In this document: piece after piece, positions 1,785 through 26,500 of the stretch
Numbering within the stretch: position 1 is the first letter of the stretch
Layout: each line of letters begins with the position of its first letter
Source: an uncultured Gammaproteobacteria bacterium
Lineage (GTDB): Bacteria > Patescibacteriota > Patescibacteriia > 2-01-FULL-39-33
Direction of reading: 5' to 3'
Assembly (NCBI GenBank): GCA_964350585.1
Contig: CAYGKC010000003.1
Location: 4,678-68,677 of the forward strand
DNA length: 64,000 nt
Program-made: the position numbers and the translations under genes
Notes under the pieces: generated by a model
Seen by the model: only the letters and a program-made list of their open reading frames with translations
What the model was told of the DNA's origin: nothing
Databases searched by the model: none

Positions 1785-2600
1785 TTGCTTTTCCTAATTT
1801 TTAAATTTGCCTCAATGCCGAATCAATTAGTATCACCCAGTAATGAAGAGGTGGTCTTGTCTGTAGCAGATGCAATTAAAAGAGACCAGGAAGCGGCGAG
1901 ATCCGAAGGAGCTAAAAATAAAAACGTAAATAAATCTATCGGTTCAATAATGGGCGAATCTTCCTCGGAAAACAGTCTAAATAATCCCAAGAAAAAAAGA
2001 AATAAAAACACTCAAGGAAAAGCAATCTATTCCCCTAACGAAGATGACAGAAGCCTTGAATACGAAAGTAAAAAAAATAAAGAAAAAGATAGTGAAGATA
2101 CAGATGAAGAAGAACTTGATGAAGACGGAGAAGAACCAGCTGATAATTCTCCAGAAAGTGAGGTTGAAAATACTCCTGAATTCAAAATTAATCAAGCAAG
2201 CAAAATAAGAGAAGATCAGCAAAAAGATCTTGCTTCACAAGAAAATGGACCAGAAAAGTCCGAAGAGATGAATTCTGAAGAAAAAGAAGAAGAAAATAAA
2301 AATTCAGAAGATAAAGAAGAGCAAGATGAAACAGATAAATCCTACAAAAATTTTGGCGGTAATATGGGTGGTTCGGGAATGAATGAAATGTTAAAAAAGC
2401 AAGTTAAAAAAAGAGTGATGATGTGGATAATAATGGCAATATTACCATTGTTATTATATATTATAGTTACACTGCTAATTTTAATTCTTATTATTATTCT
2501 CACACTGTTTATTACTAATCACCCGTGGAAAGCGGCTTTCGCTGGATTTCAAGTCTTATTTGGGGATTTGGGCGGAGCAGTTGAAACAGTTATTCAATAA
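1785..2600 (+). CDS. hypothetical highly acidic (Glu/Asp/Lys-rich, low-complexity) protein with C-terminal hydrophobic membrane segment
   Basis: ORF of 271 aa. Long E/D/K/S-rich low-complexity stretch, then C-terminal TM-like stretch MMWIIMAILPLLLYIIVTLLILILIIILTLFI. No recognisable catalytic motif. First gene of a co-directional run of envelope proteins. Confidence 0.35.
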   Translation: MLFLIFKFASMPNQLVSPSNEEVVLSVADAIKRDQEAARSEGAKNKNVNKSIGSIMGESSSENSLNNPKKKRNKNTQGKAIYSPNEDDRSLEYESKKNKEKDSEDTDEEELDEDGEEPADNSPESEVENTPEFKINQASKIREDQQKDLASQENGPEKSEEMNSEEKEEENKNSEDKEEQDETDKSYKNFGGNMGGSGMNEMLKKQVKKRVMMWIIMAILPLLLYIIVTLLILILIIILTLFITNHPWKAAFAGFQVLFGDLGGAVETVIQ

Positions 2601-2602
2601 AT

Positions 2603-3823
2603 ATGAACATAGATTATAAAAAATTGGCCTTAATAATTTTAGTCATTGCAGCGACGGTAGCTCTTATTTTTTTAATTTATTTTCTTTTTTATAAACCAAT
2701 AACCAGTACCTTTAATGGTGGAGCTGATGAGAGGCAAAAGACTACCAGCGGGACACTATCCCCGGCCGGACCCGCGGGAACTGACGGATCATCCTCCGGA
2801 GGCTCTAATGAAACCGGAACTCAAGGAAATAACCAGTCAGAGGGACAAATACTTCCAACAGAGAATGCTGAAAATTCTAAGTTAAAAAAACTCACCGATT
2901 TTCCTGCTTATTTTTCATCACCTTCAGATAACGGTCTAGTTTATTATAACTATTCAGACGGTAAATTTTACAAAATACTTCCTGATGGGTCTATCTCTTT
3001 ATTAAGCGATAAAGTTTTCCATAATGTTTCCAATATTGTTTGGTCAAATGGCAAGAATAAAGCAATACTACAGTATCCAGATGGATCAAATATAATTTAT
3101 GATTTTAAGCAAGACAAACAAATAACCCTTCAAAAGCATTGGTCGGATTTCACCTTTTCTCCAAGCGACCAGCAAATTGCTTTCAAAAGCTTTGGCATTG
3201 ATCCTGAAAACAGATTCTTGGCGATAGGAGATACAAACGGATCGAATCTGAAAATCCTTGAGTCAATCGGGGGTGTTGAAAATAAATTCTCAGTAAACTG
3301 GTCACCAAACAACTCAATGGTTGCGAATTTCATAGAAAGCAATGGGATGGATAGGTCAGAAATTTATTTTATCGGACAAAACAATGAAAACTTTAAATCA
3401 ATGCTTGTTCAGGGACGCGGTTTTGAAGGAGTATGGACACCTGATGGAACCGCAATGGTTTATAGCACTTACGATACATCAGATTATATACCTCAGCTAT
3501 GGATTTCCGGAGCCGGTCCTGAAAATATAGGCGTTGGAAGAAACGTTTTAGGCATAAATACATGGATTGATAAATGTTCGTTTTCAGGCAATACCACTTT
3601 ATATTGCGCAGTACCACAGCAAATGCCTACCGGTTCTGCTTTAGAACCGTCCTTAACTTTGGGTATTTCCGATAACATATACAAAATAGATCTTCAAACT
3701 GGAAACAAACAACTAATTACCAACTCTAACCACACAATCAATAAAATTTTTCCTTTAAATAATGGAAATGACCTACTTTTTACTGATGCCTTTACGGGAG
3801 AAATTTACAGAATAGAAAATTAA
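2603..3823 (+). CDS. membrane-anchored TolB-like beta-propeller (PD40/WD40-like repeat) protein
   Basis: N-terminal TM LALIILVIAATVALIFLIYFLF, then Gly/Ser/Thr-rich linker. Repeated WSPNG/WTPDG-type motifs (WSNGKNKAILQY, WSPNNSMVANF, WTPDGTAMVYST) are typical of TolB-type propeller blades. Start sits 3 nt after the previous stop. Confidence 0.5.
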   Translation: MNIDYKKLALIILVIAATVALIFLIYFLFYKPITSTFNGGADERQKTTSGTLSPAGPAGTDGSSSGGSNETGTQGNNQSEGQILPTENAENSKLKKLTDFPAYFSSPSDNGLVYYNYSDGKFYKILPDGSISLLSDKVFHNVSNIVWSNGKNKAILQYPDGSNIIYDFKQDKQITLQKHWSDFTFSPSDQQIAFKSFGIDPENRFLAIGDTNGSNLKILESIGGVENKFSVNWSPNNSMVANFIESNGMDRSEIYFIGQNNENFKSMLVQGRGFEGVWTPDGTAMVYSTYDTSDYIPQLWISGAGPENIGVGRNVLGINTWIDKCSFSGNTTLYCAVPQQMPTGSALEPSLTLGISDNIYKIDLQTGNKQLITNSNHTINKIFPLNNGNDLLFTDAFTGEIYRIEN

Positions 3824-3824
3824 A

Positions 3825-4520
3825 ATGAAAAATATAATAAAAAAGAATTATGTTCGTTTTATATTTATCTGTTTAGGAGCAATTATTGCTTTAAGTTTTT
3901 TTTTACTCATCATTTACTATTTCTTAGTCTTTAATCAGACACCTACGTATGAAGCAGAGTTAGAAGAAGATTATTCAAAAATATCCTCGGGATTTGTCAG
4001 TTATACAGAAGACAATTACTATCCAACATTGCCTGAAACAGCACCAATAAAAGGCAATCCAAATGCTAGTGTAGTTATTTACGAATTTGCGGATTTTGGT
4101 TGTAATTATAGCGCACAAATGCAACCGATAATCAGTTCCCTACTAAAAAAATTTCCTGAAAAAATCAAAGTTGTTTTTAAAGATTCTCCTACAGATTATT
4201 CTTATCCGGCCCATCTTGCAGCAAGGTGCGCGCAAGCTCAAGGAAAATTTTGGGAATATTCCGACATGTTATGGAAGCAAAAAGATTTTTCAGATGCAAC
4301 TATAATTTCTTTAGCTCAATCATTGAATTTGAATCTGGAAGACTTTAATTTGTGTATTCAAAATAAAAGTGCTGATAAATTTATCGAATATGATTCTAAA
4401 GAAGCGGATGCCTTATCAATTTTAGGAACTCCTCATCTTTACATCAATAAAATCGAAATAGCAGGCTTTTCAACAGAAGAAGAATTGGTTAAAATCATTC
4501 AAAATGAAATAAATAACTAG
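3825..4520 (+). CDS. DsbA-family thioredoxin-fold protein with CxxS (single-cysteine) active-site motif, membrane-anchored
   Basis: N-terminal TM, then ASVVIYEFADFGCNYSAQ with C-N-Y-S where DsbA has CxxC, and a GKFWEY helical-domain motif. Paralogous to 48476..49291, which has CEKS and GKFWQF. Confidence 0.55.
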   Translation: MKNIIKKNYVRFIFICLGAIIALSFFLLIIYYFLVFNQTPTYEAELEEDYSKISSGFVSYTEDNYYPTLPETAPIKGNPNASVVIYEFADFGCNYSAQMQPIISSLLKKFPEKIKVVFKDSPTDYSYPAHLAARCAQAQGKFWEYSDMLWKQKDFSDATIISLAQSLNLNLEDFNLCIQNKSADKFIEYDSKEADALSILGTPHLYINKIEIAGFSTEEELVKIIQNEINN

Positions 4521-4947
4521 CAAATGAATAAAAAATTTATATTTTTTTTAATAATTTTATCTTTTTTCTTCTCTATTTTGTTTTCTACTCCGTTAGCCTA
4601 TGCCGCTGATCCTGTTGTAACTCAAAGTTATGAGCTAAACACTCCCATAGGAGGAATTAAAGAATTTAATGTTAGTCAAGGAAGCAATGATATTTTAGGA
4701 AAATACGTAAAAGCATGGTACGGATTTTTATTAGGCATTGTTGGAATTTTAGCGGCTGTAGTGATAATATTCGCAGGAGTAAGATGGATGATATCAAGAG
4801 GGAATTCTTCAGAAACAGGACAGGCTAAAGAAATGATGGTTTCTGCTATTTCTGGACTTGTTTTAGCATTGCTTGCTTACACAATTTTATACTTAATAAA
4901 CCCAACTCTGGTAGTTATAAAAATGCCAGCGCTTGATCCGTTGTATA
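4512..4947 (+). repeat. 436-bp direct repeat, copy 1 (100% identical to 5505..5940): intergenic tail, start codon and N-terminal module of the hydrolase gene
   Basis: Block-by-block comparison of the two regions in the raw sequence found no mismatch. Identity starts 12 nt upstream of the ATG and ends at codon 141/142. Confidence 0.9.
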
Positions 4948-5513
4948 GTGAAGCAACGGAAGGAAGTGCAGGAGCATTAAGAGAAGGCGCAAGAGAAAGA
5001 GCTGACTGCCCACAAACTTCCCAATCTTGTAGAAATTCCACAACCGGTGTGTTAGATTTTGGAAATGTTCCTCCAAAAGCTCCCACAATACCAGCAGACA
5101 TTGAAGCCATAATTACAAGAGTGGCTGGCACTGATAATAATATGAGAGCAATGCTTAGAGCAATATGTATGGCGGAAAGCGGATGTAATCCCAATACCAG
5201 AAGTAGTAGTGCAGGAGCCATAGGCTTAATGCAAATAATGCCTTCCACTGGTGCCAGACTCAACTATACACCTGAACAGCTTAGAGATCCTGAAACCAGC
5301 ATCAGAGGAGCTGCAGCATTAATAACAGAAGGGCGGGCAAAAGGATATACACCACCCCAAATTGCAGCATATTATAACGGCGGCAGCGGTGCTGTTGCTG
5401 CAAGTAGAGACTGCCCAGGAGTTCAAGCCTATCAATGTTGCACAAATCCAGGATGCTTAACTCAAACGCAAGATTATGTTCCTAAAGTTATGAGTTATTA
5501 TAATAATAACTAG
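4524..5513 (+). CDS. secreted/membrane cell-wall hydrolase: T4SS-pilin-like N-terminal module (signal peptide + 2 TM helices) fused to lytic transglycosylase (SLT, VirB1-like) domain
   Basis: N-terminus is a signal peptide ending AYAA. Two hydrophobic helices follow (GFLLGIVGILAAVVIIFAGV; MMVSAISGLVLALLAYTILYLI), giving TrbC/VirB2 or T4SS_pilin-like topology. C-terminal SLT motifs AICMAESGCNPN (catalytic Glu-Ser) and AIGLMQIMPSTG. First 141 aa are identical to the next gene. Confidence 0.65.
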   Translation: MNKKFIFFLIILSFFFSILFSTPLAYAADPVVTQSYELNTPIGGIKEFNVSQGSNDILGKYVKAWYGFLLGIVGILAAVVIIFAGVRWMISRGNSSETGQAKEMMVSAISGLVLALLAYTILYLINPTLVVIKMPALDPLYSEATEGSAGALREGARERADCPQTSQSCRNSTTGVLDFGNVPPKAPTIPADIEAIITRVAGTDNNMRAMLRAICMAESGCNPNTRSSSAGAIGLMQIMPSTGARLNYTPEQLRDPETSIRGAAALITEGRAKGYTPPQIAAYYNGGSGAVAASRDCPGVQAYQCCTNPGCLTQTQDYVPKVMSYYNNN

Positions 5514-5940
5514 CAAATGAATAAAAAATTTATATTTTTTTTAATAATTTTATCTTTTTTCTTCTCTATTTTGTTTTCTACTCCGTTAGCCTATGCCGCT
5601 GATCCTGTTGTAACTCAAAGTTATGAGCTAAACACTCCCATAGGAGGAATTAAAGAATTTAATGTTAGTCAAGGAAGCAATGATATTTTAGGAAAATACG
5701 TAAAAGCATGGTACGGATTTTTATTAGGCATTGTTGGAATTTTAGCGGCTGTAGTGATAATATTCGCAGGAGTAAGATGGATGATATCAAGAGGGAATTC
5801 TTCAGAAACAGGACAGGCTAAAGAAATGATGGTTTCTGCTATTTCTGGACTTGTTTTAGCATTGCTTGCTTACACAATTTTATACTTAATAAACCCAACT
5901 CTGGTAGTTATAAAAATGCCAGCGCTTGATCCGTTGTATA
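5505..5940 (+). repeat. 436-bp direct repeat, copy 2 (tandem, 993 bp offset)
   Basis: Same evidence as copy 1. Sequence diverges completely immediately after ...ccgttgtata. Confidence 0.9.
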
Positions 5941-6329
5941 CTGAAAGCGGTTTAGGCGAAGAAAGCAGTGAAGAAGGTGAAGGCACAGGAAGAGCAGGGA
6001 GTGCGGGCAATAGCGCATCTATCGATGAATTAACACCAGAAGCTCAAGCCTTACATAGATCAATAGTTGAAACATGCGGTCCCGTAACTGCCAACTCTAC
6101 ATACCGACCGGCAAATCGCGCTTCTGCGCATTATAGCAGAATAGCAATTGACTATCCAAGAACTACAGCAATGGATAATTGCATGAATGGCATAATAAAT
6201 GGAGTGGAACCGTATACTAGAGACAAGCAGGGCAATCCCATTTACAGAGTCACTTTTCCTAATGGCGCCAGCGGAAGAATAATTGATGAGCCAGGTAATA
6301 ATTGCTGGCATATTGACCTAAGACCTTAG
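5517..6329 (+). CDS. paralogous cell-wall hydrolase: same pilin-like N-terminal module fused to LAS/M15-type (YcbK/DUF882-like) zinc peptidase domain
   Basis: N-terminal 141 aa are identical to 4524..5513. C-terminus has SAHYSRIAIDY (H-x6-D) and NCWHIDLRP (HxDxR), which resemble Zn-ligand motifs of the peptidase M15/hedgehog-DD-peptidase fold. The family assignment is inferred from motif resemblance only. Confidence 0.5.
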   Translation: MNKKFIFFLIILSFFFSILFSTPLAYAADPVVTQSYELNTPIGGIKEFNVSQGSNDILGKYVKAWYGFLLGIVGILAAVVIIFAGVRWMISRGNSSETGQAKEMMVSAISGLVLALLAYTILYLINPTLVVIKMPALDPLYTESGLGEESSEEGEGTGRAGSAGNSASIDELTPEAQALHRSIVETCGPVTANSTYRPANRASAHYSRIAIDYPRTTAMDNCMNGIINGVEPYTRDKQGNPIYRVTFPNGASGRIIDEPGNNCWHIDLRP

Positions 6330-6331
6330 AA

Positions 6332-7648
6332 ATGATCAAATCTAATACATTTATTTGCTCAAATTGCGGCGCCCAGTATCCTAAATGGCAAGGGCGTTGT
6401 TTGGAATGTGGAAAATGGAGTACAATCATTGAAGAAACCGATAATAATCACCAAGCAAACGGGAAACAAGATATTCCCATACTTCTTTCTGAACTTAAGG
6501 TTTTAAACCAAGATAGAATTAAAACAAATATTGATGAATTAGACAGAGTTTTAGGCGGAGGTATTGTAAAAGGAGCGGTAATACTAATCGGAGGCGATCC
6601 TGGAATAGGAAAATCAACTTTAGCATTGCAAATAGCACAGGGCATTAAAAAAACGTTATATGCTTCCGGAGAAGAATCGGCAAATCAAATTAAAATTAGA
6701 TTTGATCGCTTAAAACTTAAGCCGAATGAGTTAAACTTTTTACCACAGACTGATGTTAATAGGATTATATCAACTGCACTCTCAATAAATCCTGAACTGC
6801 TAATAATCGATTCAATTCAAACATTAACGGATGCGGATGTGCCAAGCGGAGCCGGAAGCCTTATACAAATAACAAACTGTTCGGGCAAACTGATTCAATT
6901 TGCAAAAACTAAAAACATTCCAGTTATAATAGTTGGACATGTCACCAAAGAAGGAATAGTTGCCGGACCAAAAACATTAGAACACTTGGTAGATACTGTA
7001 TTATACCTCGAGAATGACAGCCAAAATTTTTATAAAATATTACGAGGAACTAAAAACCGTTTCGGCTCAACAGGTGAAATAGGAATTTTTGAAATGACAC
7101 AATCCGGACTCATAGAAATTAAAAATCCGACGCAAATATTTGTGGAAGAAAACGGATCCGAACATCCAGGCAAGGCAATGTCAATAATTATGGAAGGAAG
7201 CAGGCCTTTTCTAGTTGAAATTCAAGCTCTTGTTTCTAAAACTATATTCGGATACCCACAAAGAAAATCAACCGGTTATGATCTGAATAGAATGCAGATG
7301 ATCATAGCTGTTATTTCCAAAATTGCAAAAATAAATTTAAGCAATCAAGATATTTATTTAAATATTGCTGGAGGTATAAAAGTTAAAGATACTGCAATAG
7401 ATTTAGCAGTAGCTTTAGCCATAATTTCTGCATTTATCGAAATAAATATAAATCATAAAAGCCTGATAATAGGAGAAATAGGGTTATCCGGCGAAATAAG
7501 AAATGTTACTCAAATGGAAAGAAGAATTAAAGAAGCAAAAAATTTAAATTTTAATAAAATTATTCTTTCTCCCATAAAAACAGACGAGAACTTTCTTTTA
7601 AAAGCCAAGGATATTAAAGAAGCGATAAACTACATTACAAAAAGTTGA
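6332..7648 (+). CDS. radA: DNA repair protein RadA/Sms
   Basis: N-terminal C4 zinc finger CSNCGAQYPKWQGRCLECGKW. RecA-like Walker A GGDPGIGKST, KNRFG motif, and C-terminal Lon-protease-like domain. Stop is TGA. Confidence 0.9.
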   Translation: MIKSNTFICSNCGAQYPKWQGRCLECGKWSTIIEETDNNHQANGKQDIPILLSELKVLNQDRIKTNIDELDRVLGGGIVKGAVILIGGDPGIGKSTLALQIAQGIKKTLYASGEESANQIKIRFDRLKLKPNELNFLPQTDVNRIISTALSINPELLIIDSIQTLTDADVPSGAGSLIQITNCSGKLIQFAKTKNIPVIIVGHVTKEGIVAGPKTLEHLVDTVLYLENDSQNFYKILRGTKNRFGSTGEIGIFEMTQSGLIEIKNPTQIFVEENGSEHPGKAMSIIMEGSRPFLVEIQALVSKTIFGYPQRKSTGYDLNRMQMIIAVISKIAKINLSNQDIYLNIAGGIKVKDTAIDLAVALAIISAFIEININHKSLIIGEIGLSGEIRNVTQMERRIKEAKNLNFNKIILSPIKTDENFLLKAKDIKEAINYITKS

Positions 7649-9694
7649 TTATTCCCTATGTGTTACATATCCGAAATCTGAAATTTTTTCCTTTATCTGA
7701 TTAATTGATTCCTTATCTTCGTTAGCCATACTCCAAGCTGCCCAATGCTTGGCTTTTTTTATCAAATCAATATCATTTATATCTGCAATTTTAAAATCGA
7801 CAAAACCAGATTGTTTTGTTGAATAAATTGAACCGCCACCTCTGGTCTCCAAATCATAATTAGCCAATTTAAAACCATCATTACAAGAAGCCATATAATT
7901 TAACCTTCTTATGACTTGTTCATCATTTTTATCACTAAATAAAAAGCAATAAGATTGATGCATTCCCCTTCCGACTCTCCCCCTAAACTGATGTAATTGA
8001 GCAAGCCCAAACCTCTCTGATCCTTCTATCATCATAACGTTAGCATTAGGTACATCTATTCCTACCTCTATCACTGATGTAGATACTAAAATCTTTATTT
8101 TATTTTCAATAAATTCTCTCATTATTTTTTCTTTTTCTTCAGCCTTCATTTTTCCATGCAAAAGGCCAACTAATAATTCGGGAAAGATTGTTTTATCTAA
8201 TTTTTCATACTCTTCTTTTACTGATTTAACTCCAAGAAAATCCGATGGATCAACTAAGGGACAAATAATAAAAACCTGCCTTCCGTTTACAATTTGCTTT
8301 TTAATGAATTCATAAGCTAAGCGCCTTTTTTCAGAAGGGACAACTTTTGTTATTATCTGCCTTCTGCCACTGGGCATCTGTTTAATAATGGATAAGTCGA
8401 GATCGCCGTAACAAATCAAAGCAAGAGATCGAGGAATCGGAGTTGCGGTCATTGAAAGAAAGTGCGGTGTTTTTCGGTTTAAATTTTTTTCCTTCAATAA
8501 CTTCCTTTGTTCGACTCCAAAACGATGCTGTTCATCAACAATAACCAATCCTAAATTTAAAAATTGAATTTTTTCTTGTATAACAGCATGGGTGCCGATT
8601 ATAAAATTAACTTTACCTTTTTTTATTAACTCGATTAAATCATTCTCCTTAACATCTTTTCCGTTGATAGATTTAAAGGACCTGGCCAGTATGGCAATAT
8701 TAATTTTTTCTTTTTTAAAAATTTTTCTTGCACTCTCATAGTGCTGTTTGGCAAGAACTTCAGTAGGTACCATTAATACTGTTTGAAGTGATGATAAATA
8801 TGCGTTTAAAACAGCAATAAATGCAACAATAGTCTTACCCGAACCAACATCGCCTTCCAACATTCTATTCATTGGGATTTCTTTGCCTAAATCTTTTATT
8901 ATTTCCCAAGTAGCTTTTTTTTGATCTATTGTAAGATTAAAACCAAGACTGGAAATAAAATCTTTGGATTTTTTTTCATCAAAAGTTATTGGCGAAGCTT
9001 TTTTATTTGATAATTCGTTTTTTATCAATTCAGAAGCAAATTGCATTAAGTATATCTCATCAAAAGAAATTCTTTCCTTAGCCTTTTTTAACTTCTCCTC
9101 CGAAACCGGATAATGAATATTCACTATCGCCTCTTTTAAATTTAAAAAACCTTCTTCTTGAATAATTTTAGTTGAAAGATGATCAGTAATTTCAAAACTT
9201 TTAATTACTTCTTTTACAAGTGAACGTATATGTTTCTGGTTCAAACCTGATGTTAGCGAGTAAATTGGCAATAATCCGTTTTCAAAATTTTTAGAAAAAG
9301 AATAGTTTGGACAGCTTAAATAGCAGTCTGAATTATCACCGATTATTTTACCGGAAAAAAACAATTCCTGCCCTGCTTTAATATTTTTTGTAAGCCAAGG
9401 TTGGTTAAACCAAAGTATTTTAACAGATCCAGTATTATCACTGACCAGTGCCTCCACAATATTTTTTCTATTGTATCTGGTTTTTTTGGCGCTAATCAAT
9501 TCTACAGTTCCAAAAATATTTACCATAGTGCCGGCCTTCAAGTCAGAAATATTTGTATTCTCATATGATTCATATCTGAAGGGAAAATAAAAAATGAGAT
9601 CCTTAACGGTCTCAATTTGTAAAAATTTTAATTTACCAGCCAAAATCTTTGAAACTCCTGATAAATCCTTTATTTTATTATTTAAATCTAACAT
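7649..9694 (-). CDS. recG: ATP-dependent DNA helicase RecG
   Basis: SF2 helicase motifs GDVGSGKT (I), VIVDEQHRFG (II) and MTATPIPRS (III), plus a wedge/OB region. The ORF track extends to 9745, but that extension overlaps a tRNA. The Met at 9694 (MLDLNNKIKDL…) is the plausible start. Stop abuts the radA stop, so the genes are convergent. Confidence 0.85.
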   Translation of the reverse strand: MLDLNNKIKDLSGVSKILAGKLKFLQIETVKDLIFYFPFRYESYENTNISDLKAGTMVNIFGTVELISAKKTRYNRKNIVEALVSDNTGSVKILWFNQPWLTKNIKAGQELFFSGKIIGDNSDCYLSCPNYSFSKNFENGLLPIYSLTSGLNQKHIRSLVKEVIKSFEITDHLSTKIIQEEGFLNLKEAIVNIHYPVSEEKLKKAKERISFDEIYLMQFASELIKNELSNKKASPITFDEKKSKDFISSLGFNLTIDQKKATWEIIKDLGKEIPMNRMLEGDVGSGKTIVAFIAVLNAYLSSLQTVLMVPTEVLAKQHYESARKIFKKEKINIAILARSFKSINGKDVKENDLIELIKKGKVNFIIGTHAVIQEKIQFLNLGLVIVDEQHRFGVEQRKLLKEKNLNRKTPHFLSMTATPIPRSLALICYGDLDLSIIKQMPSGRRQIITKVVPSEKRRLAYEFIKKQIVNGRQVFIICPLVDPSDFLGVKSVKEEYEKLDKTIFPELLVGLLHGKMKAEEKEKIMREFIENKIKILVSTSVIEVGIDVPNANVMMIEGSERFGLAQLHQFRGRVGRGMHQSYCFLFSDKNDEQVIRRLNYMASCNDGFKLANYDLETRGGGSIYSTKQSGFVDFKIADINDIDLIKKAKHWAAWSMANEDKESINQIKEKISDFGYVTHRE

Positions 9695-9703
9695 AAAATC
9701 TTT

Positions 9704-9777
9704 TGTGCCCGAGAGGATTTGAACCTCTGATCTCCGGCTCCGCAAGCCGACGCTTTATCCAGCTAAGCTACGAGCAC
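9704..9777 (-). tRNA. tRNA-Arg (anticodon read as GCG)
   Basis: Minus-strand sequence GTGCTCG…CGGGCACA folds as a cloverleaf. Acceptor stem is 7 bp with one G·U; D-stem GCTT/AAGC; anticodon stem TCGGC/GCCGG with loop TTGCGGA; T-arm AGAGG-TTCAAAT-CCTCT. Folded by hand, so the anticodon needs tRNAscan confirmation. Confidence 0.6.
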
Positions 9778-10584: not shown

Positions 10585-11319
10585 TCAACCCCCTCCCCTG
10601 GCTATCACAAATCCGCCGATATTATTAAATCCAGAAGATTTCAATACTTTTGCGCACTCCTGCATTGTTGATCCTGTTGTGTAAACATCGTCTACTAATA
10701 AAATGTTCCTATTTCTATTTATAAAGCTTAAAACCTCATCATTAATAACAAAATTATCTTTTAAATTAATTCTTCTTTCTTGCGCTTTTAATTTTGCCTG
10801 AGGTCGGCTATAAATTATTCTTCTTAGCAATTTATCTTCTTTTACTCCTCCTATTAAGTTCACTATTCTATCCGCTATCAGATCTGCTTGATTAAATCCT
10901 CTCTCAAGTTTCCTTCTTCTATGTAATGGAACGGGAACAATTATTGAATTATCATATTTATAATTCAGATTATTGAAATATTTTACAATCATTGCATCAA
11001 AAATTTGGACGTTTTCAACAATAAAATCATATTTAATTGAAGAAATTATTTCCTTAACCAAATTGCCATAATCAGACAAGATCAAAAGGTAATTTAAATT
11101 GGATTCTCCACAACAATTTCCGCAAACCAATCCACCGAAATTACTTTTTCTGCAAATAGGACATTCGAATCCGCTTTTGATTAATATTTTTTTATTGCAA
11201 TTTTCACACAAATATTTACCTAACAAACCGCAACCAAAACATTTTTTGGGAAAGATTAAATCAATAATTTTTTCCTTTGTTTTTGTAAAGTTAAAATTAC
11301 TGTAACCACTGTGCATCAT
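10585..11319 (-). CDS. comFC: competence protein ComFC-like (zinc-finger + phosphoribosyltransferase domain)
   Basis: N-terminal Cys clusters (CFGCG…CENCN…CPICR…CGNCC). C-terminal PRTase PRPP-binding motif ILLVDDVYTTGSTM. Last gene of the long minus-strand operon; its start overlaps the upstream gene by 23 nt. Confidence 0.7.
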   Translation of the reverse strand: MMHSGYSNFNFTKTKEKIIDLIFPKKCFGCGLLGKYLCENCNKKILIKSGFECPICRKSNFGGLVCGNCCGESNLNYLLILSDYGNLVKEIISSIKYDFIVENVQIFDAMIVKYFNNLNYKYDNSIIVPVPLHRRRKLERGFNQADLIADRIVNLIGGVKEDKLLRRIIYSRPQAKLKAQERRINLKDNFVINDEVLSFINRNRNILLVDDVYTTGSTMQECAKVLKSSGFNNIGGFVIARGGG

Positions 11320-11883: not shown

Positions 11884-13815
11884 TTATGAATTTGCAATAT
11901 CAGTGTTTCCTGCTGCCAAAGCATCCTCGAATTCTTTTTTAGCAGCTTCCAATTCCAATAATTGCCTTGGATCCGATGTAATTAATTGATCTTCTGAATA
12001 TGAAGCAATTATTTTTATAGCAGCATGTTTAGCTCCGGCAAAAAATATACCTTCCCCGACTCCGCTTTCAAGAAGCAAATATTTTTCACCTTCAGTCAAC
12101 ATAAAAGTTTTCTGAATCAAATTAACAGCTGCGGGAGTTTGCTTCATTAACAACTGCATTGAAGAGTTGTTAATAATTGCTTGCCCGTATGGTGATGTTA
12201 AAAAATCATTTACATCCTGAGTTATTGTAGTAATTCCAAGGTAGTATTTTCTGCACCTTTTAACCATAGCATAAATAAATTTAGCGCTATCCTCTCTTTG
12301 CATCAGCCACCAAGCCTCATCTACTATCAAAATTCTTTTTTTCATCTGACTTCTTACCACATTCCAAATATAGTTTACGATAGTATAAATTGAAATAGGC
12401 TTAAGTTCATCTTCCAAATCTCTGACACTAAAAACAACAAGCTGATTGCTCATTTCTACGTTTGTAGGATTATTCAAAAGACCTGAAAAAGTTCCCTCAG
12501 TGTATTTTTTTAATCTTAAAGCTATATTCTCTGCGCCTTCCATTCCTTCTAAAATATCCTGCAAATCCTGGAGAATCGGCGGTTCAATATTTGTCAAATT
12601 CGCTGTAGCTGTTATATCTTTTTTAGCATATGTTTCAAGAAGAGCTCTGTCAATTATTGAATCTTCCTCATATGTAACATCGCCAATCATTAGTCTTATA
12701 AGTCCTTTTACAGTAATAACGGCGCTTCTGATAATATCTTCCGGATGAGCATCTTCTCCCACTGCGCGAGGCAAATCGAATGGATTTATTTTGCTTTCGG
12801 AATTTAAGGAAATATCAATGTAAGTCCCTCCAACGGCATCGCATAAATGCTTGTATTCCCTTTCCGGGTCAATAATTATCACTTCAACTCCAAGCATTAA
12901 ACTTCTTAAAACTTCAAGCTTAACTGCATAAGATTTTCCAGCTCCGGAAGTAGCAAATACAACTGCATTTGCATTTTGAAGTGAAAACCTATCAAAAAGT
13001 ATTAGGCTATTATTATGCCTGTTAATTCCATATAAAATTCCATTATCTGAAGTTAGATCAGAAGACACAAAAGGAAAAGAGCTGGCTGCAGGTGATGTGT
13101 TCATATTCACCAACGTAGCAAGTTCATCAAAAGCTAGAGGCATAGTTGAATTAAAGCCTTGCTCAGCTTGATAAAAGACTCTTCTGGAATAAACCAAATG
13201 CGACCCGAAAAAATTTTCCACTTCTTCGGAAATTTGATTTAATTCCTCAAGTGACTTTGCATAAAGTGTTACATAAAGGCCTGTCTGAAAAAAGTGTTCA
13301 ATCCCCTGTGTCAAGTCATCTCTTAATTTTTCCATATCACGTAACTGCGTCTCAGCCAAAGGATCTCTTGGCGCGCCTTTTTCCGCAGAACTGATAAGTC
13401 CAGATTCTACATTTCCTACTTTCTTTTTTAACTGTTTTAAAATAACGGCAGTTTTAACCGGATAAAAATAAAACGACATATCCGCAACAATATCCATATT
13501 AATAATAGGAGCGAACCATCCCACACTGATGTACCTTGGGTACTGCACCACAAAAATAGTTCTTACATATAACTCTCCCAACCTAATATGGTTAGCTGTA
13601 ACCTCCAAAGCTGCAGGAGCAATTAGATCCCTGATACTTACAACACCTTGTCTGTATATCCTTTCTTCTTCCAAAACTTCTTTGGCAGTGTCTATATGGT
13701 CCTTTTCAATTTGCTTCACTTGTGCCGGAGCATACTTAACTTGCGCACCCAATTCAGGGGGCGTTTCTGTCTGCTTTTTTAAGTCATTTGGAGTAAACAT
13801 ATTAGAATCCTTCAA
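11884..13815 (-). CDS. virB4: VirB4/TrbE/CagE-family type IV secretion ATPase (Gram-positive size class)
   Basis: Walker A VFATSGAGKSYAVK, Walker B RILIVDEAWWL, and conserved C-terminal QDVNDF/TQ region. Track start is a TTG at 13813-15. The first ATG (MFTPNDL…) is at 13798-13800, 1 nt from the stop of the upstream ORF. Confidence 0.85.
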   Translation of the reverse strand: MKDSNMFTPNDLKKQTETPPELGAQVKYAPAQVKQIEKDHIDTAKEVLEEERIYRQGVVSIRDLIAPAALEVTANHIRLGELYVRTIFVVQYPRYISVGWFAPIINMDIVADMSFYFYPVKTAVILKQLKKKVGNVESGLISSAEKGAPRDPLAETQLRDMEKLRDDLTQGIEHFFQTGLYVTLYAKSLEELNQISEEVENFFGSHLVYSRRVFYQAEQGFNSTMPLAFDELATLVNMNTSPAASSFPFVSSDLTSDNGILYGINRHNNSLILFDRFSLQNANAVVFATSGAGKSYAVKLEVLRSLMLGVEVIIIDPEREYKHLCDAVGGTYIDISLNSESKINPFDLPRAVGEDAHPEDIIRSAVITVKGLIRLMIGDVTYEEDSIIDRALLETYAKKDITATANLTNIEPPILQDLQDILEGMEGAENIALRLKKYTEGTFSGLLNNPTNVEMSNQLVVFSVRDLEDELKPISIYTIVNYIWNVVRSQMKKRILIVDEAWWLMQREDSAKFIYAMVKRCRKYYLGITTITQDVNDFLTSPYGQAIINNSSMQLLMKQTPAAVNLIQKTFMLTEGEKYLLLESGVGEGIFFAGAKHAAIKIIASYSEDQLITSDPRQLLELEAAKKEFEDALAAGNTDIANS

Positions 13816-14483: not shown

Positions 14484-14915
14484 TTATTCTTCTCCCATAT
14501 AAACGCCCCCCGTATCCACTATTAGAGACAATTCTGATAGTTTGGAGGCTGATACTGACTTTTTAGATTTTATTCTTAAGGGCACATACTGATCTGTCGG
14601 ATTTTTTAGTGCAGCTTTTATTTCATTAATAGATAATTTTTTGCGCCACACCTTTAGCTTTGGGTTTTTTAGCGTAGCAATAAGGTTTAAAAGAAAAAGA
14701 TGGAAAACTTGTCCATTAATTTTAGCAAAAGCAAAAAGGCAAGTTATGCCAAAAACCAAAAGACCCGACAAAACAAAAAGCGAGAAATCAAAAATTTTAT
14801 AAAAAATAAATATTATGCCTAGACCAATAAGCAATTCTATGAACTGCCTGATGGTTATCGGGCCCATAATCTTATCTTCAACGTCCAAAAATTGAGGAAC
14901 TGTTACTTGTTGCAT
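14484..14915 (-). CDS. small inner-membrane protein, VirB3-like
   Basis: ORF of 143 aa with two adjacent TM helices (LLIGLGIIFIFYKIF; VLSGLLVFGITCLFAFA). Encoded just upstream of the VirB4 N-terminal-like and ATPase ORFs, which is the canonical VirB3-VirB4 arrangement. Confidence 0.4.
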   Translation of the reverse strand: MQQVTVPQFLDVEDKIMGPITIRQFIELLIGLGIIFIFYKIFDFSLFVLSGLLVFGITCLFAFAKINGQVFHLFLLNLIATLKNPKLKVWRKKLSINEIKAALKNPTDQYVPLRIKSKKSVSASKLSELSLIVDTGGVYMGEE

Positions 14916-20578: not shown

Positions 20579-23500
20579 TTAATATCCCGCTTCTATTAAA
20601 CTACTGCTTATGGTTGAACTTGCACTTGCATTCCAATTATCTTTAACAGTTATCGTAATAGTAGCCGGATTAGGAGACATTTCATTAGGATTATAATAAT
20701 GATACATCACAAAAGGATTATTTTCATCTATTCTTTGCCTTAACTTTACGCCTGCAACCGAATCTTCCGATCCGTCACCCCAATTAATAGTGTAAGAAGT
20801 AAGCGGAAGCTGATCCTTGTCAACTTTTACATTAAAAGAAAGTCGAAGTGTCTGGCTTGAAGTAGAAACTTTAATATTAGTAATCAACGGCTTGATTTTA
20901 CAGGGCACACCCAAAGCCGTGTTAATAAATCTCCAGTTAACATCCCTGTCACCAGGATTCAAACCGGAACAATATTCATTTGGCAAAGACCAATTTGCTC
21001 CTTTTACTTCATCATAACTACCTTGATCCCATCTGTTATTGTCTTCCTTCCACACCCATACGCCATAACTTTGGGCGAATAAATTCTTTAATGCTTCCTC
21101 TTTTACTGGTTGACCGGTTCTTGGCTGATAAGGAGCTTCAGTTTTAAAATTCGGCGTTTCCCATAAAATTGGCTGTTTTGTGTAATCATCATCAGTTCTC
21201 CTAGAATCCCATAAGATAGGATTTTGAAAATTATTTGACGGCGCGACAAGTGATCCAAAAGGCTTGTAATCTGCTCCGTAACCGTCAAATTTATAGCCAA
21301 GATTTGAATAAATCATATTTTCGTAATAGCATTTTCCGGTAATTTCATCCCATGTGTTACCCTTTTCTCTGCAAGTAGTAGAACCATTAATAGCTGAATT
21401 AGTACAAGCAGCAGTAACGCCATCATTTAAACCTTTCAGGCAATAAGGATTTGTAAATTGTGGATACTTATCCGTGGTGGTTGAAAAGGCAAATTGAGAT
21501 CCGCTACTGAGCCTGTCCACCCATGCTTTATTTTTACCTGATGGCGTAGCTACCTGGACAATTTTATTGCAATAATGAATATCAAACTCACTATAAGCCG
21601 ATCCAGTCATAAGCAGTCCTAACACAATACCCCCAGCTTTTACATTCCAAGCCAGACCCAAAATATCACCTGGCACGCTTGGATTAGGATCAGTAAAATA
21701 AGAAGCATATTTTGGATCCTGATCGGTAACCACTTTTGCTCCCAAGGAAGTTCCTGTTCCGCCAGCATCCAATCCGGCCATAGACATTATCTGACCTATA
21801 AGGTCTCCACCCCCGTCACCCGATCCGCCGGACATTATTTTATTTTCTACATTATCCCAACTTTCAGGGAATAATAAGGCCGTTCCCGCTCCATCGCCTC
21901 CAAACCAACTAGTTGCAGCTAGTCCCCATCCTCCCCAACGACTGTTATCAGTTAGATTGCCTATACGTGGTTCTAATTCACCTCCATTGTATGTTTCACA
22001 TTTATCACCCAAAAGAAATTTCAAAAAAGATGAACAGATAGTATTTTCCAAATTATTTAAACCCAATAAATCAAAAATAATTCCGAGTGGATCTTGTCCA
22101 TCAGCGCCAAAATGACTAACATTATTGCGACCCATATGGACGTTAGCAATTCCACCTCCCAAACCAAAACCGTCTAAATTTCCACCAACACCGAGAACAA
22201 TTCCAGCATAATGAAAAGTATTTCTATTTTGAGGTTTACCGCCCAAAGTAAAACCACTAAGTACTTCACTAAATAAAGTCGAAAGTTTATTAAGAGCGTT
22301 TGTTTCCGGCTTTGATATAAATGGATATCTAAATAGAGCGGAAGCATTTATTAAATCTGAATTTTCAGATTCAAAAACAGAATACTGTGCAGTTTCACCG
22401 CCTAAGACATTTAAATTAAGTCCTGGAGCAAGATTATTTAACATTTGTCCCATACCGCCACTAGTTACTTTGGTAGTTTCTACATAAACTCTAATTGTTT
22501 CTTTAGTGGTGGAAACGCAATAATATAGCGGAGATCTCTCTCTATATCCACCCGAATACTCATCCACAATATCGCCTTTAATTTCATCAACCGGCCACCA
22601 CTGCAAACACACCTGGGGATTCTTCGGATCCCAAGCCAAGCAATAACCGTACCAACCATAGTAAAATCTTCCATCTTCTGAGTATTGGCAAGACATCGCA
22701 TTTTGATCTGGATAAATTCTACAACTTCTAGAAATAGTAGACTCTTCTTTAGTTAAAATATCGGTTAAACCAGTAAAAGCATTTAACTGCGAAACTTTAG
22801 GAACAGGATTTAAAACAGGCTTTAGGGAAATATCGTCAAAAAGCGAACTTCCGCTTATCCTGCAAGCCGTACCATAATTTATGTTATATTTTTTATCATC
22901 AAGTAAGTCATTACATTCTTTCTGGTCTAAACTATTATTAAAATTAATCAATTTTAAACAAATTGTAGAGGTTGAAGGTGTAAACTTTAGCGTTTTCTTT
23001 GTCCAATTAATTCCTTCACGCATACTGATAACTCTCCCAGGCCTTTGATTACTACATTCTGAACCTTCAAAAACCCATATTTCAGCAGAAGTGGTGCTAA
23101 GCAAGTCTAAGGTGTTAAGCCAAGCGCTTAAATAATATTCTTGTCCTTTTTCAACATCAATCGGTTCCGATTCCAACTCGTTTGGTCCGTGCAATCTCAA
23201 ATAGCCCGCATCCTGTTTTCTGTATAGATAATTTCTTTCAATCGCATATTTATCGGGACCCCAACCAGATGCATCCAAATCCGAAGATGATGCAGACATT
23301 GTCCAACCTAACGGTTCGGCTGAAGCTGAGACAGTAGATTCAAAATTACCGTTTGAAACACTTGCAGATTGCCCTTCCTGTGTCATCTCTGCAAAGGACA
23401 AATAATTAGGCACGGAGTAACCTGTCAAAAATTGGAAATTAGAAGAATTAGTTGTTATAGGTTCATTGTTTTTTTGGGTAAAGGAATCGCAAGTTCTGTC

Positions 23501-26500
23501 GTCATAGTCCATTTTTTCACATAAACCAACTCTTAAACAACTGTCCTGACTCTGGAATCGAAAATCTGCCGCCGTACTTGTGGTGGAATCACTGTCTTTT
23601 TTATAAGTGGTGCAATACAGCCAGTTCTTGCAAGTTCTGTCGGGCAGAACCTTAAGCAGTACGCTGGTATCTTTGGGCTCATCTGTTGAAGCCTTAAGAG
23701 GTTGCTGTTTATTGCCAATATAATCGGAATATGTTTTTGAAGAATTGAAAATCAAATATTTATTTCGTTCTTTAATTAATTCATCGTTTGAATCTGAATC
23801 ATATGAATAATTTATGCTTGATCTTTCATTAAACAGCACGCAACCCGTCTTGTAATCAACAAGGCCGTTGCAACCTGAACGATTTACATTGGTAGATAAA
23901 GCGTAATACACTCCCGCTCGAGTAACTACAGTACTTGTACTTGAAAGATTAATTTTACAAGTTTTAACGTTATCATCCTTTGCCTTCACATAAAAAGTAG
24001 TTGTAACATTGCCAAGCGGATGATAAATATTACAAAAAGCAGAAGCGGCAGTTGTGGTAACAAATCCTCCTGATGAAGAATAAAGGTAATTAGATTCTAT
24101 AACCAAGGTTGATGAACTCTTATAATTCAAATTAGGATAAATTTCAGTGATAGGATCGATATATTCGCTGCATCCGTTTTTATTATCCTGACATAAACCC
24201 ACCCAACCGTTATATTTAATGTTGCTGTAATTATTTATTACAAAAATTGTTGATGATCCTGTTAAATTATTAATAGGACCGATCGGCTGATATTTGTTTC
24301 TGACTGATTCATAACCCGTGCCGAATGTTTGATCGGGAGTAATCATACACGCTTCGTCAGTTCCTTTTTTGTACCATCCCGCCGCCAAATCTCCCGCTCC
24401 TCTGAATTCGCAAAGTTTCCTGGGATTTTTAAAATAATATAAGGAATTATTGCCGGCAAATTGTTCGCACCATACCTCGTCTGCAGCGCATAAATCAGTC
24501 GCATACCTATCAGGATCATTCTTTAAAAATACAGTGCTATATCCTAGAACTTCGTCATATTGGTTAATTTTGGGCAAACCCAAAGCCATACATCCTTTAT
24601 CTTGCAAACCACAACTATATGCTGGGCTATTAACAAGATATGCTTTTTCGTAAGGTCGGACGGTAATTTGATCATTATATCCTTTGCTATTATCAGGATT
24701 AAATATAAATCCTTGATATTTATCGTAATTATGAGTATCAATAAGTTCTTCGCAACCCGCAGCTTCTTTTCTGCACAAATTGGCAAATGACTTCAAATAA
24801 GCGCTTAATCCGTCTTGAGTTTTGTACGCTTTACAGCCAAGCATATTGCCAGGAACACATCTGTGGTTATCAGTACCGGGATTTTGATCATAACAAATTT
24901 GATAAGCAGCACTGGAATTAGTCTGTGACTGAGCATAGTTTACTTTACCAGCCGGATCATTTAAATCATTGTCGCAAGAAAACGGAGTAAACCAGGAATT
25001 CTCAACCAGATACACTTTATCTCTCATTTCTTTCAACTGAATATTATCCAAGAAAACTTTTTCAGAACCAATATTAAAAACTAAATTTTCAACCTCCGGC
25101 TGATCCCATGTTACAAAGACCGGACCTACTTCAAAATATTTCCATTCACCTGTAATTTCAGGCATAGAAAGATTAATATCACCATCATTTTTCAAAGATG
25201 AAACTGCAAAGTAGTCATTTGGATTAGTAGAGCTGTTGAACTTTATTGATTCGAATCGGAAATTGCCTGTTGAACTTGCTTTAGCCCAGAAACTGAGCAT
25301 ATATGTCCTATTTTTATGTACGGCAACTTCCTTTTTAATTTGTCCACCAGTATTTTTTATGGAGTATCCCCCTTGATATGTCGCTTCTGAACTTGTAACC
25401 GCTCCAATCCAGCCTTCAAGATTTTCATTGCTGAATTGACTTATTGGGAATACGTTTCTGATATTATTGCCATAATTTCCGGTGTAAGCCCGACAACCGG
25501 AAACTGAGGCGCTGCACATAATTCCTTCGCCTTTCATAGCCATATATATGCACTCATTAGTAGCACTATTCCACCAGCCTTTTGTACAGTTTGCCTCTGC
25601 TTCTGTAAGCGTTTTTTCTGTTTGTGTTCTTCTATACGGATGGCAGTTATCAGAAATTGTAACAGTCATTGATAAAAGACGATAAGTGATGTTTCCGCCA
25701 GCATCGTAAAACTGCCTGCAATCTGGATTTGAAGCCATATTCTCTTTGGTACAAAGTCCATTTTCTAAATTATGTGAAACTGCATCAGGATCATTGCAAA
25801 TTCCAATACCGCTTGTATTATAGGAAATGTTTGTGCAGGGCGCGCTTGGATCTTTATTACTCCTTTTTAGTTTGTAAACCTTTAACTGATAACCGGTCGT
25901 ATCTTCACCCTCCCAAGTATAGTAAGTGCCATCATCCGTAGAAGGTTTTTGGCATGCTTTTATTCGCACAAAATATTCTCTTTGTTCCGCTCCCCTGCCT
26001 AGCTCATCAAGGTTTGTAAATTCATCACATCCCGCATAAGCGGCCGAACAGTATTTTGGCACGTTATTAGCAATAAACTGGACAAAGGTCGACGAAACAA
26101 AATAAGTTTTTTCTTGTTTATATACCTGGTATCCCGCACATTCCGCAGGGCACAAATCAATGCTTTCAGCCACTCCGGGCACTTCCGGATCGCCGTTTAC
26201 GGGCTTATAAATATTGCAACCTACCTCATCAGAAGTACAAACTGAAGCGTATTTTGAACAAAGTTTATTTTGGTTAAGAAGAATATCATATAAATTCGAG
26301 CTGTTAGCCCAAATATTACCTTTCTTATAGCAATTTAAATAATCAGGCGCTTTCCTTAAAAACGTCAATTGCTCTGCAGGCCGTTTTGAAGGATTATATT
26401 CTGTGAAAGAAGAAGGCAACTCAGAATTGTAGTTTATTTCTTCTAACTTTATATCATCAAAATATACCATCGTTTCTGCTAAGCCGGATATCACCCGAAT

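Follow-up and report, generated by a model that had tools for sequence, protein, structure and literature searches.

Background

VirB2-like pilins, and arrays of the genes encoding them, are known in Patescibacteria (PMC10633639, Wang et al. 2023; PMC12102498, Quinonero-Coronel et al. 2025), and in the one species of this group that has been tested genetically, the genes of the type IV secretion system (T4SS) and the VirB2-like pilins are essential for epibiotic life (PMC10633639). Here we describe two adjacent genes, the open reading frames (ORFs) A and B, in which a pilin module of this kind is fused to a predicted peptidoglycan hydrolase: a lytic transglycosylase in the first and a zinc-peptidase-like domain in the second. 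Both genes begin with the same 436 bp. They are located in a 64,000-nucleotide stretch of contig CAYGKC010000003.1 (assembly GCA_964350585.1, positions 4,678 to 68,677 of the forward strand), which is called the window in what follows. The pilins of Patescibacteria, the comF/recG/radA context of the class ABY1 and the T4SS hydrolases of monoderms have already been published (PMC12102498, PMC12857230, PMC10633639). No report of a pilin-peptidoglycan hydrolase fusion was found in the searchable literature, including PMC12102498, and the same literature yielded nothing on the rare LAS-type tail family, on the conserved DsbA-like partner or on the homogenisation of the pilin module that are described below.

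The pilins of Patescibacteria belonging to the PF18895 family resemble those of the window in having a signal peptide followed by a hairpin, in their MPF-FATA-like chromosomal T4SS surroundings with VirB4 and PrgI, and in the tandem arrangement of the pilin genes. The published arrays, however, are composed of small, divergent pilins (mean identity 25%, maximum 54%; PMC12102498), whereas the two modules studied here are 100% identical and each of them bears an enzymatic head of about 130-190 aa. The same survey counts VirB1 and VirB2 separately and finds most VirB2-containing genomes to be without VirB1, so that pilus biogenesis appears to be independent of VirB1 (PMC12102498); this remark may need qualifying for a class of pilins with enzymatic tails. 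VirB2-like genes next to a T4SS have also been amplified in tandem in Bartonella and Anaplasma (cited in PMC12102498), where the paralogues bear no fused domains and their divergence is interpreted as antigenic or host-range variation; here, in contrast, it is the appended domains that vary, on a homogenised pilin part.

As far as the enzymes are concerned, the pair resembles VirB1 of Agrobacterium, PrgK of pCF10 and TraG of pIP501, in which SLT and peptidase activities are found at a T4SS locus on membrane-tethered extracytoplasmic domains. Proteins of the PrgK/TraG type combine SLT with CHAP or LytM in a single polypeptide behind a plain N-terminal anchor (compare PMC12102498), whereas the window has two polypeptides, a peptidase of LAS/MT3-like type and a VirB2-like pilin module as the anchor. 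An earlier inspection of the DNA (the sequence-only reading) had described the pair as a PrgK/TraG-type hydrolase resolved into two genes; this holds as an analogy but not beyond it, PrgK and TraG having no VirB2-like module.

A further parallel is offered by the pilE/pilS conversion of Neisseria and by the PilV shufflon of R64, which join a constant N-terminal assembly module to interchangeable C-terminal parts, recombination between repeated pilin sequences generating or homogenising the variants. These systems differ in being type IV pili (related to the type II secretion system) of an unrelated fold, and in using silent cassettes or a site-specific recombinase. Our pair, in contrast, consists of two complete and presumably co-expressed genes in which entire enzymes make up the variable parts, and the window yielded neither a recombinase nor a silent cassette.

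Results and discussion

Two adjacent genes begin with the same 436 bp

The genes, the repeat and the domains with which we are concerned are the following.

4524..5513, + strand: ORF A (329 aa), made up of a signal peptide (aa 1-27), the hairpin core (aa 56-134), a flexible linker and the SLT domain (aa ~202-293)
5517..6329, + strand: ORF B, 270 aa; aa 1-141 as in ORF A, linker aa ~142-163, predicted LAS-fold domain aa 164-270
4512..4947, + strand: repeat copy 1; end of the dsbA-like gene (two codons and stop), 3-nt spacer, codons 1-141 of ORF A
5505..5940, + strand: repeat copy 2; end of ORF A (two codons and stop), 3-nt spacer, codons 1-141 of ORF B
4689..4925, + strand: T4SS_pilin (PF18895) core in ORF A, with the loop RWMISRGNSSETGQAK between its two transmembrane helices
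5682..5918, + strand: T4SS_pilin (PF18895) core of ORF B, by profile match
5127..5402, + strand: SLT (PF01464) catalytic domain of ORF A, by profile match and alignment with Slt70
6006..6326, + strand: zinc-peptidase-like domain of ORF B, of VldE-MT3-like LAS fold (clan MD), by family alignment, profile search of the PDB and AlphaFold2 model

When the two segments are compared directly, 4512-4947 and 5505-5940 are identical at 436/436 positions and start 993 bp apart, in agreement with the earlier description of two neighbours that share 12 nt and codons 1-141 and then diverge abruptly. The repeat consists of the 12 nt before each ATG, of codons 1-141 and of the first base of codon 142, which is AGT (Ser) in ORF A versus ACT (Thr) in ORF B and contains the first difference. 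At the left edge identity stops immediately; at the right edge a single mismatch and 4 chance matches come first, and similarity then falls to random level. The 12 upstream bases are AAT AAC TAG CAA, and AAT AAC TAG closes both the dsbA-like gene (4512-4520) and ORF A (5505-5513), so that both proteins end in Asn-Asn. Because these upstream bases include the last codons and the stop of the preceding gene, the stop codon of ORF A lies inside repeat copy 2.

In a 64-kb sequence of the same composition about 10^-237 exact pairs of 436-mers are expected, and a chance origin of the repeat is therefore excluded. No third copy of the module is present in the 64-kb window at the DNA or at the protein level: the search for further copies fused to other domains, which the sequence-only reading had suggested, returned within these limits nothing beyond the two already known. 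Silent tail cassettes, considered together with a third copy as an alternative content of the window, were rejected, as none was found.

The shared module resembles VirB2 and T4SS pilins

Residues 1-141 match the T4SS_pilin model PF18895 with 37.0 bits in ORF A and 37.4 bits in ORF B, against a gathering score of 26.6, and the proposed likeness to VirB2 and T4SS pilins is thereby confirmed, while the match to TrbC (PF04956) stays below threshold (17.3 vs 27.9). The NCBIfam model NF045849, "pilin-like conjugal transfer protein", gives 25-26 bits, under its cut-off of 40, and the module is not a member of it. With 195 aa in ORF A and 136 aa in ORF B beyond the core, neither protein is a small pilin made of the hairpin only. 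The two fusions are the only ORFs of the window with a pilin core. A tblastn search with the module against 72,556 plasmids gave no match; there is therefore no detectable close link to the annotated pilins of conjugative plasmids.

The predicted topology, a signal peptide and two transmembrane helices, is likewise borne out. A signal peptide of 27 residues with the site AYA|AD can be read from the sequence (aa 1-27), and hydropathy peaks mark three hydrophobic segments, aa 1-28, 61-93 and 103-134. In the AlphaFold2 model helices span residues 3-20, 54-90 and 95-125, the latter two forming a hairpin, and the stretch that joins the hairpin helices reads as a basic loop, RWMISRGNS. By analogy with the established topology of VirB2, the C-terminus, and with it the appended domain, would be outside the cytoplasmic membrane.

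ORF A carries an SLT lytic transglycosylase domain

The tail of ORF A had been taken for a family-1 lytic transglycosylase, and the profile search agrees: residues 202-293 match SLT (PF01464) with 61.6 bits (cut-off 21.3, E 6.6e-17). The characteristic motifs are found as Glu218 in MAES, GLMQ at 234 and YYNGG at 283; in the alignment with Escherichia coli Slt70 (1qsa) the ES, GLMQ and YNxG motifs correspond, and Glu218 falls on the QES motif, in the region of the catalytic Glu of Slt70. Among the PHROGs a lytic tail protein family (E 2e-17) and an endolysin family (E 7e-15) match as well. These matches assign ORF A to the family-1 SLT lytic transglycosylases, and it is predicted to cut glycan strands. 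The tail contains 8 Cys.

ORF B carries a rare LAS-type domain

In ORF B the module is followed by an acidic linker rich in Gly, Ser and Glu (aa ~142-163), with a predicted local distance difference test score (pLDDT) below 50, and by the tail that had been proposed to be an LAS/M15-type peptidase. This tail has no match in Pfam (even at E <= 1), NCBIfam or PHROGs, and is not a member of Peptidase_M15, M15_2/3/4, VanY or M23; its relative P0003 reaches Peptidase_M15_4 at E 0.083 at best. Word-indexed homologue searches with the tail alone, or with an alignment of 3 sequences, retrieved no relatives, and phmmer against the PDB sequences gave chance matches only. When 1.84 billion cluster representatives were scanned exhaustively with HMMER, only 31 relatives were detected, and the pilin core is present in 28 of the 30 that were checked. 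The tail represents a rare zinc-peptidase-like family that occurs almost only on pilin modules.

Two members of the tail family are exceptions in architecture: P0093 (524 aa) has a long low-complexity N-terminus and a single transmembrane helix, and P0097 is a stand-alone domain of 145 aa. A third protein, P0083 (1743 aa), matches only the C-terminal half of the ORF B-type domain, in 9 stretches.

In the alignment of 22 members of the family His, Asp, Tyr, Glu and Trp are invariant, a second His is nearly so and most members keep an Arg; the residues are arranged in the pattern S-x-Y-R-P ... H-x6-D ... (I/V)-(I/V)-(D/N)-E ... (C/H)-W-H. In ORF B these residues are Arg197, His205, Asp212, Tyr243, Glu258, Trp264 and His265. 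The Glu, Glu258, is invariant in the family and lies 7 residues before His265. The first position of what would be the HxH motif is Cys263 in ORF B and in many relatives, and His in the sister subgroup with SHWH(I/V)EF; the second His is His265.

The closest known counterparts are the MT3 domain of VldE and the LAS zinc peptidases (PDB 9flh, 1lbu and 2vo9, VanXY; PMC11667670). VldE (Spr1875) of Streptococcus pneumoniae is an L-Ala/D-iGlx L,D-endopeptidase whose zinc ligands are H301, D308 and H375 and in which R294 stabilises the transition state (PMC11667670). ORF B shares with the MT3 domain of VldE, and with the LAS enzymes of clan MD (M15), the series S-x-Y-R-P ... H-x6-D ... W-H and a small alpha/beta sandwich. 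The metal-motif pattern H205-x6-D212, with R197 before it, aligns to SGYRP..DHGKGLAIDF of VldE, and by motif position R197, H205, D212 and H265 are equivalent to R294, H301, D308 and H375. A profile search of the PDB sequences with the tail family returned the C-terminal domain of VldE at E 0.015 and the N-domains of hedgehog proteins at E ~0.25; these matches are weak and all of them fall on HxxxxxxD. The AlphaFold model computed from the 22-sequence alignment reaches a pLDDT of 96.1 and a predicted template-modelling score (pTM) of 0.87. Unlike VldE and the LAS enzymes, ORF B has no membership in the Pfam M15 and M23 profiles, reads CxH for HxH and lacks the zinc-zipper loop histidines.

On the strength of the model and of the motifs we file the tail of ORF B under the LAS fold, in a minimal form; it is probably zinc-binding, and it would be related to the MT3 L,D-endopeptidase domain of VldE and is predicted to cut stem peptides. 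The earlier proposal of an LAS/M15-type peptidase consequently stands in part: the LAS fold and the metal motif favour it, whereas the peptidase profiles find nothing and the HxH motif reads CxH. As no peptidase model of Pfam or NCBIfam matches, the profile check that accompanied that proposal comes back empty despite the LAS fold.

The pair is old and its modules bear a signature of concerted evolution

Exact-protein look-ups, and a scan in which each species was represented by one genome, yielded 41 related loci, with about 20 kb fetched at each; the pilin fusions in them were found with a hidden Markov model (HMM) of the pilin core. A tandem pair of pilin fusions on the same strand is present in 23 of about 40 distinct loci. 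In the contigs that reach far enough radA follows the fusions, and a DsbA-like gene accompanies them in about 33 of 41 loci, directly upstream where this was checked. The propeller gene that precedes the dsbA-like gene in the window is syntenic in L001, L003, L015, L016, L023, L035 and L044. In L001 the order is propeller, pilin-LAS, pilin-SLT, radA, recG, i.e. the two tail families of the window follow each other in reversed order (2356-4222), with no DsbA-like gene between the propeller and the pilins. L003 has clpB ... propeller, dsbA, a pilin with a lysozyme-like tail, a pilin with a Cys-rich tail, radA, recG ... comF, VirB4 and PrgI. The pair of pilin fusions is old, being conserved with its synteny in distant genomes.

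Altogether 64 pilin-fusion ORFs were found, 61 of which match PF18895, and the invariant positions of this family are kept across the 64 proteins. All the tails measure at least ~50 aa. The recognisable ones are SLT (6), 3D (3), phage lysozyme (2), VanY (1), Peptidase_M15 (1) and SLT_3 (1); several others resemble LAS domains in their motifs or match the HMM, and the remaining tails are for the most part rich in cysteine (8-28 Cys). Wall cutting is apparently fused to the pilin itself in one large class that has SLT, 3D, lysozyme, VanY and M15 tails as well as tails of the hitherto unclassified LAS type. A scan of metagenome contigs with ORF A retrieved 80 ordinary SLT proteins of unrelated bacteria, through the generic AIGLMQIM motif, none with a pilin core, and brought up no close relatives of this genome.

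A second kind of Cys-rich tail (second genes of L017 and L018, L039; P0053, P0057, P0059, P0061, P0068) ends in a canonical HxH, e.g. ...SCHTNGTCADI ... EHFHVN, and from its sequence looks like another LAS-type peptidase that Pfam does not detect. In other proteins a Cys-rich domain is found between the signal peptide and the pilin core (L003 8805-9986, L027 9677-10597, and the second genes of L019, L022, L025 and L033); with an insertion before the core and a tail after it, both extracytoplasmic ends of the hairpin are decorated in those proteins. Many records among the related metagenome-assembled genomes (MAGs), including L006, L007, L009 and L013, are titled "uncultured Gammaproteobacteria bacterium", although both their gene content and their nearest relatives are Patescibacteria-like, and are probably mislabelled.

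The tails and the modules have different histories. Between the window and L001 the SLT tails are 51% identical over 113 aa and the LAS tails 25% over 119 aa, the homology of the latter being backed by an HMM match at E 1e-40. The N-terminal modules, on the other hand, are more alike within a genome (100% in the window, 87% in L001, 78% in L003) than between genomes (47-65%); as a scale, the flanking RadA proteins are 54-60% identical between genomes. The tails follow the species while the modules follow the genome, which is the signature of concerted evolution.

The same signature is visible at third codon positions of the 77-codon core, where identity is 1.00 in the window and in L006, 0.95 in L027 and 0.94 in L003, and 0.45-0.75 in the other pairs. 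The tracts are mosaic and their ends sharp. In L006 the homogenised tract covers 450 bp at 97% (11 mismatches), from the signal peptide to the linker, between unrelated flanks; in L027 (255 bp at 96.5%) and L003 (229 bp at 97%) it comprises only the core, with unrelated N-terminal extensions and flanks.

As the origin of the repeat we favour, from these comparisons, gene conversion in an old pair over a fresh duplication, because the tandem pair, its synteny and the orthologous SLT and LAS tails are kept in distant genomes. A recent gene conversion or unequal crossing-over would have replaced one module by the other, together with the end of the gene in front (two codons and the stop); the tract would start two codons before the upstream stop and end at the linker, where homology ends. 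The sequence-only reading had left the choice between a very recent duplication and ongoing conversion: the comparison with other genomes speaks for conversion, in episodes, and makes the duplication less likely, given an old pair with orthologous tails elsewhere. The identical modules would illustrate cleanly how conversion can affect, in nature, a single domain in a pair of multidomain proteins. With two identical copies in tandem, recombination would delete the 993-bp unit that holds the SLT tail, and the population may be heterogeneous as a result.

The genes around the pair and the T4SS-like locus

ORFs A and B belong to a string of co-directional genes separated by 1-3 untranslated bases. 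At the upstream edge of the window a ClpB-type ATPase is truncated by the window edge, and the neighbours of the pair are the following.

1785..2600, + strand: acidic low-complexity protein with a C-terminal hydrophobic segment, within the tightly packed co-directional string
2603..3823, + strand: membrane-anchored beta-propeller protein, with weak matches of TolB and Peptidase_S9_N type
3825..4520, + strand: DsbA-like protein of thioredoxin fold; N-terminal membrane helix, CNYS motif; by profile match and motif scan
6332..7648, + strand: RadA/Sms recombination protein, which starts 3 nt past ORF B
7649..9745, - strand: RecG helicase, by profile match
10585..11319, - strand: ComF-like protein (double zinc ribbon and phosphoribosyltransferase domain), by domain match
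11884..13815, - strand: VirB4-like T4SS ATPase (TraG P-loop / AAA_10 / DUF87)
14484..14915, - strand: PrgI-family (VirB3-like) T4SS protein, by profile match

The neighbourhood that had been read from the letters, an acidic protein, a TolB-like propeller, a CxxS-type DsbA and a T4SS-like locus, was recovered in every element, with VirB4 and PrgI about 5.5 kb away. T4SS loci of the class ABY1 commonly include comF, recG and radA (PMC12102498), and the arrangement of radA, recG, comF, VirB4 and PrgI in the window is the one reported for this class. Linkage to VirB4 and PrgI recurs in L003 and in L044, where a pilin fusion is found directly beside the VirB4 cluster. The nearest database relatives are MAGs of Patescibacteria and Falkowbacteria, and we take the window to be part of a chromosome of Patescibacteria (CPR) of ABY1/Falkowbacteria-like type.

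Beyond the VirB4 and PrgI genes large unannotated envelope proteins are encoded. Directly after the T4SS-like string lies a giant ORF of 3088 aa (20579-29845, - strand), whose sole match is a faint carbohydrate-binding module, and next to it a protein of 292 aa with bacterial TSP3 repeats (29846-30724, - strand); the two may be surface or adhesin components of the T4SS-like system. As regards the DsbA-like proteins, a simple motif scan of the homologues in other loci gave CPYC, CSYC, CPFC and CPHC, and also CPYS and CPFS, next to the CNYS of the window, and a second DsbA-like gene is present in the window at 48476-49291 (- strand).

A proposed two-hydrolase scaffold and its alternatives

The explanation that we consider probable as a whole, with moderate confidence, is that of an old tandem pair with converted VirB2-like modules and with SLT and LAS heads, which together would form a hydrolase scaffold linked to the T4SS. 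Both proteins would be inserted in the membrane through the same pilin hairpin, from which a flexible linker leads to the hydrolase head, and they would be recruited to, or polymerised by, the neighbouring T4SS of VirB4/PrgI type. Glycan and peptide cutting would then be complementary on one scaffold at the place where the apparatus crosses the wall, be it that of the cell itself or that of a host. The DsbA-like protein encoded upstream would probably oxidise the Cys-containing heads, and its adjacent position fits disulfide-bonded heads outside the cytoplasm. We infer that both heads face the wall and together attack the glycan and the peptide parts of peptidoglycan. We regard the assignment of the domains and the signature of conversion as solid, whereas the functional model is proposed as a hypothesis; the fusions and their DsbA-like partner provide a testable idea of how a secretion conduit may cross its own or a host wall in an ultra-small monoderm.

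Several observations weigh against this explanation. About 5.5 kb separate the fusions from VirB4, which is encoded on the other strand. In 15 of the 23 pairs the core from another genome is closer than the paralogue, and the pairs are mostly 66-85% identical in nucleotides; homogenisation must thus be episodic and lineage-specific, and identity is not functionally required. A universal selection for identical cores was considered and is rejected on the same 66-85%. The gene order is swapped, SLT then LAS in the window and LAS then SLT in L001, so that rearrangements beyond simple conversion have occurred; repeated unequal exchange between the modules would produce such a swap. Cys263 of ORF B sits at the position of H373 of VldE, the canonical first His of HxH, which is essential, the H373A variant being inactive (PMC11667670); ORF B may therefore be inactive, or it may use another residue, e.g. 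the invariant Glu258. Finally, the 100% identity and the tandem arrangement are read from a single MAG contig.

The stalk may serve as the subunit of an enzyme-displaying pilus or as a plain membrane anchor. For a role in a pilus, ORFs A and B are the only VirB2 homologues seen around the T4SS genes; against it, the heads are bulky. C-terminal processing occurs in TrbC of RP4 and is a further possibility for the fusions.

If the hairpin were an anchor only, it would be bitopic and would never polymerise, the two proteins would be VirB1-type hydrolases for the housekeeping or assembly of the cell's own wall, and the identity of the modules would be a neutral by-product of recombination. We hold this to be possible though rather unlikely. 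It is in line with the hydrolases of monoderm T4SS, PrgK and TraG of pIP501, which are membrane-anchored enzymes (PMC12102498), with the position of the pair among genes of envelope proteins, 5.5 kb from VirB4, and with the fact that the identity of the modules is not conserved in most genomes. Against an anchor that never polymerises, the module scores above the cut-off of the pilin family and keeps the family's invariant positions in 64 proteins. Moreover, no unfused pilin was found in the window or within the ~20 kb fetched for each related locus, and if the T4SS needs a VirB2, the fusions are the only candidates seen. In L044 a fusion is placed inside the VirB4 cluster. The VirB2-like pilins, in addition, are essential in the one T4SS of Patescibacteria that has been tested (PMC10633639).

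At the other end, and in our opinion doubtful, is an extension of the scaffold into a complete pilus: an ABY1-type T4SS pilus built of VirB2-like subunits with enzymatic or Cys-rich heads would act as a wall-degrading adhesive "drill" on the peptidoglycan of the host bacterium, in the present case with both glycan- and peptide-cutting heads, and the core would be a recombination handle, beside radA, recG and comF, for the shuffling of heads and the homogenisation of cores.

As for the identity of the modules, conversion in an old pair has to be weighed against a different history, in which one pilin-fusion gene was recently duplicated in tandem and an illegitimate recombination then exchanged the tail of one copy for an unrelated domain. 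Perfect identity that includes the 12 upstream nt, and the sharp 3' boundary, do resemble a fresh duplication junction, and the tails, highly diverse across the family, do get exchanged. Yet the same SLT tail and the same LAS tail, the latter with 31 relatives in 1.84 billion representatives, are paired between the propeller and radA in L001 too, where the modules have already diverged to 84-88% nucleotide identity, and an independent gain of the same rare tail on two occasions is improbable; we therefore judge a recent duplication to be quite unlikely.

A short-read assembler or polisher could have raised a repeat of ~98-99% to 100%, which would leave our conclusions unchanged. That the repeat is as a whole an assembly artefact, either a misresolved repeat joining the tails of two strain variants or near-identical copies homogenised by bubble-popping or polishing, we consider very improbable: an exact repeat of 436 bp does exceed typical k-mer lengths, and neither looking up the exact ORF B protein in a contig index nor the metagenome-contig scan with ORF A turned up an independent assembly, but the junction of the SLT tail with the second module (5480-5530) is present, and would not be created by strain alleles that both run into radA, and 22 further distinct loci share the architecture although their modules differ too much to be collapsed (e.g. 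97% in L006 and L003, 84% in L001). The identical modules are not to be taken by annotators and assemblers for a simple duplicate or for an error.

Other features of the window

Two further observations concern the remainder of the window. On the - strand, 34158-37721 encodes a leucyl-tRNA synthetase of 1187 aa with an unusual architecture, in which a NUDIX domain (aa 438-530) and a serine-hydrolase/alpha-beta-hydrolase domain (aa 627-798) are inserted between the editing and the anticodon-binding domains. Over the whole 64 kb the + strand has 19.9% C versus 15.4% G, a strong compositional skew between the strands.

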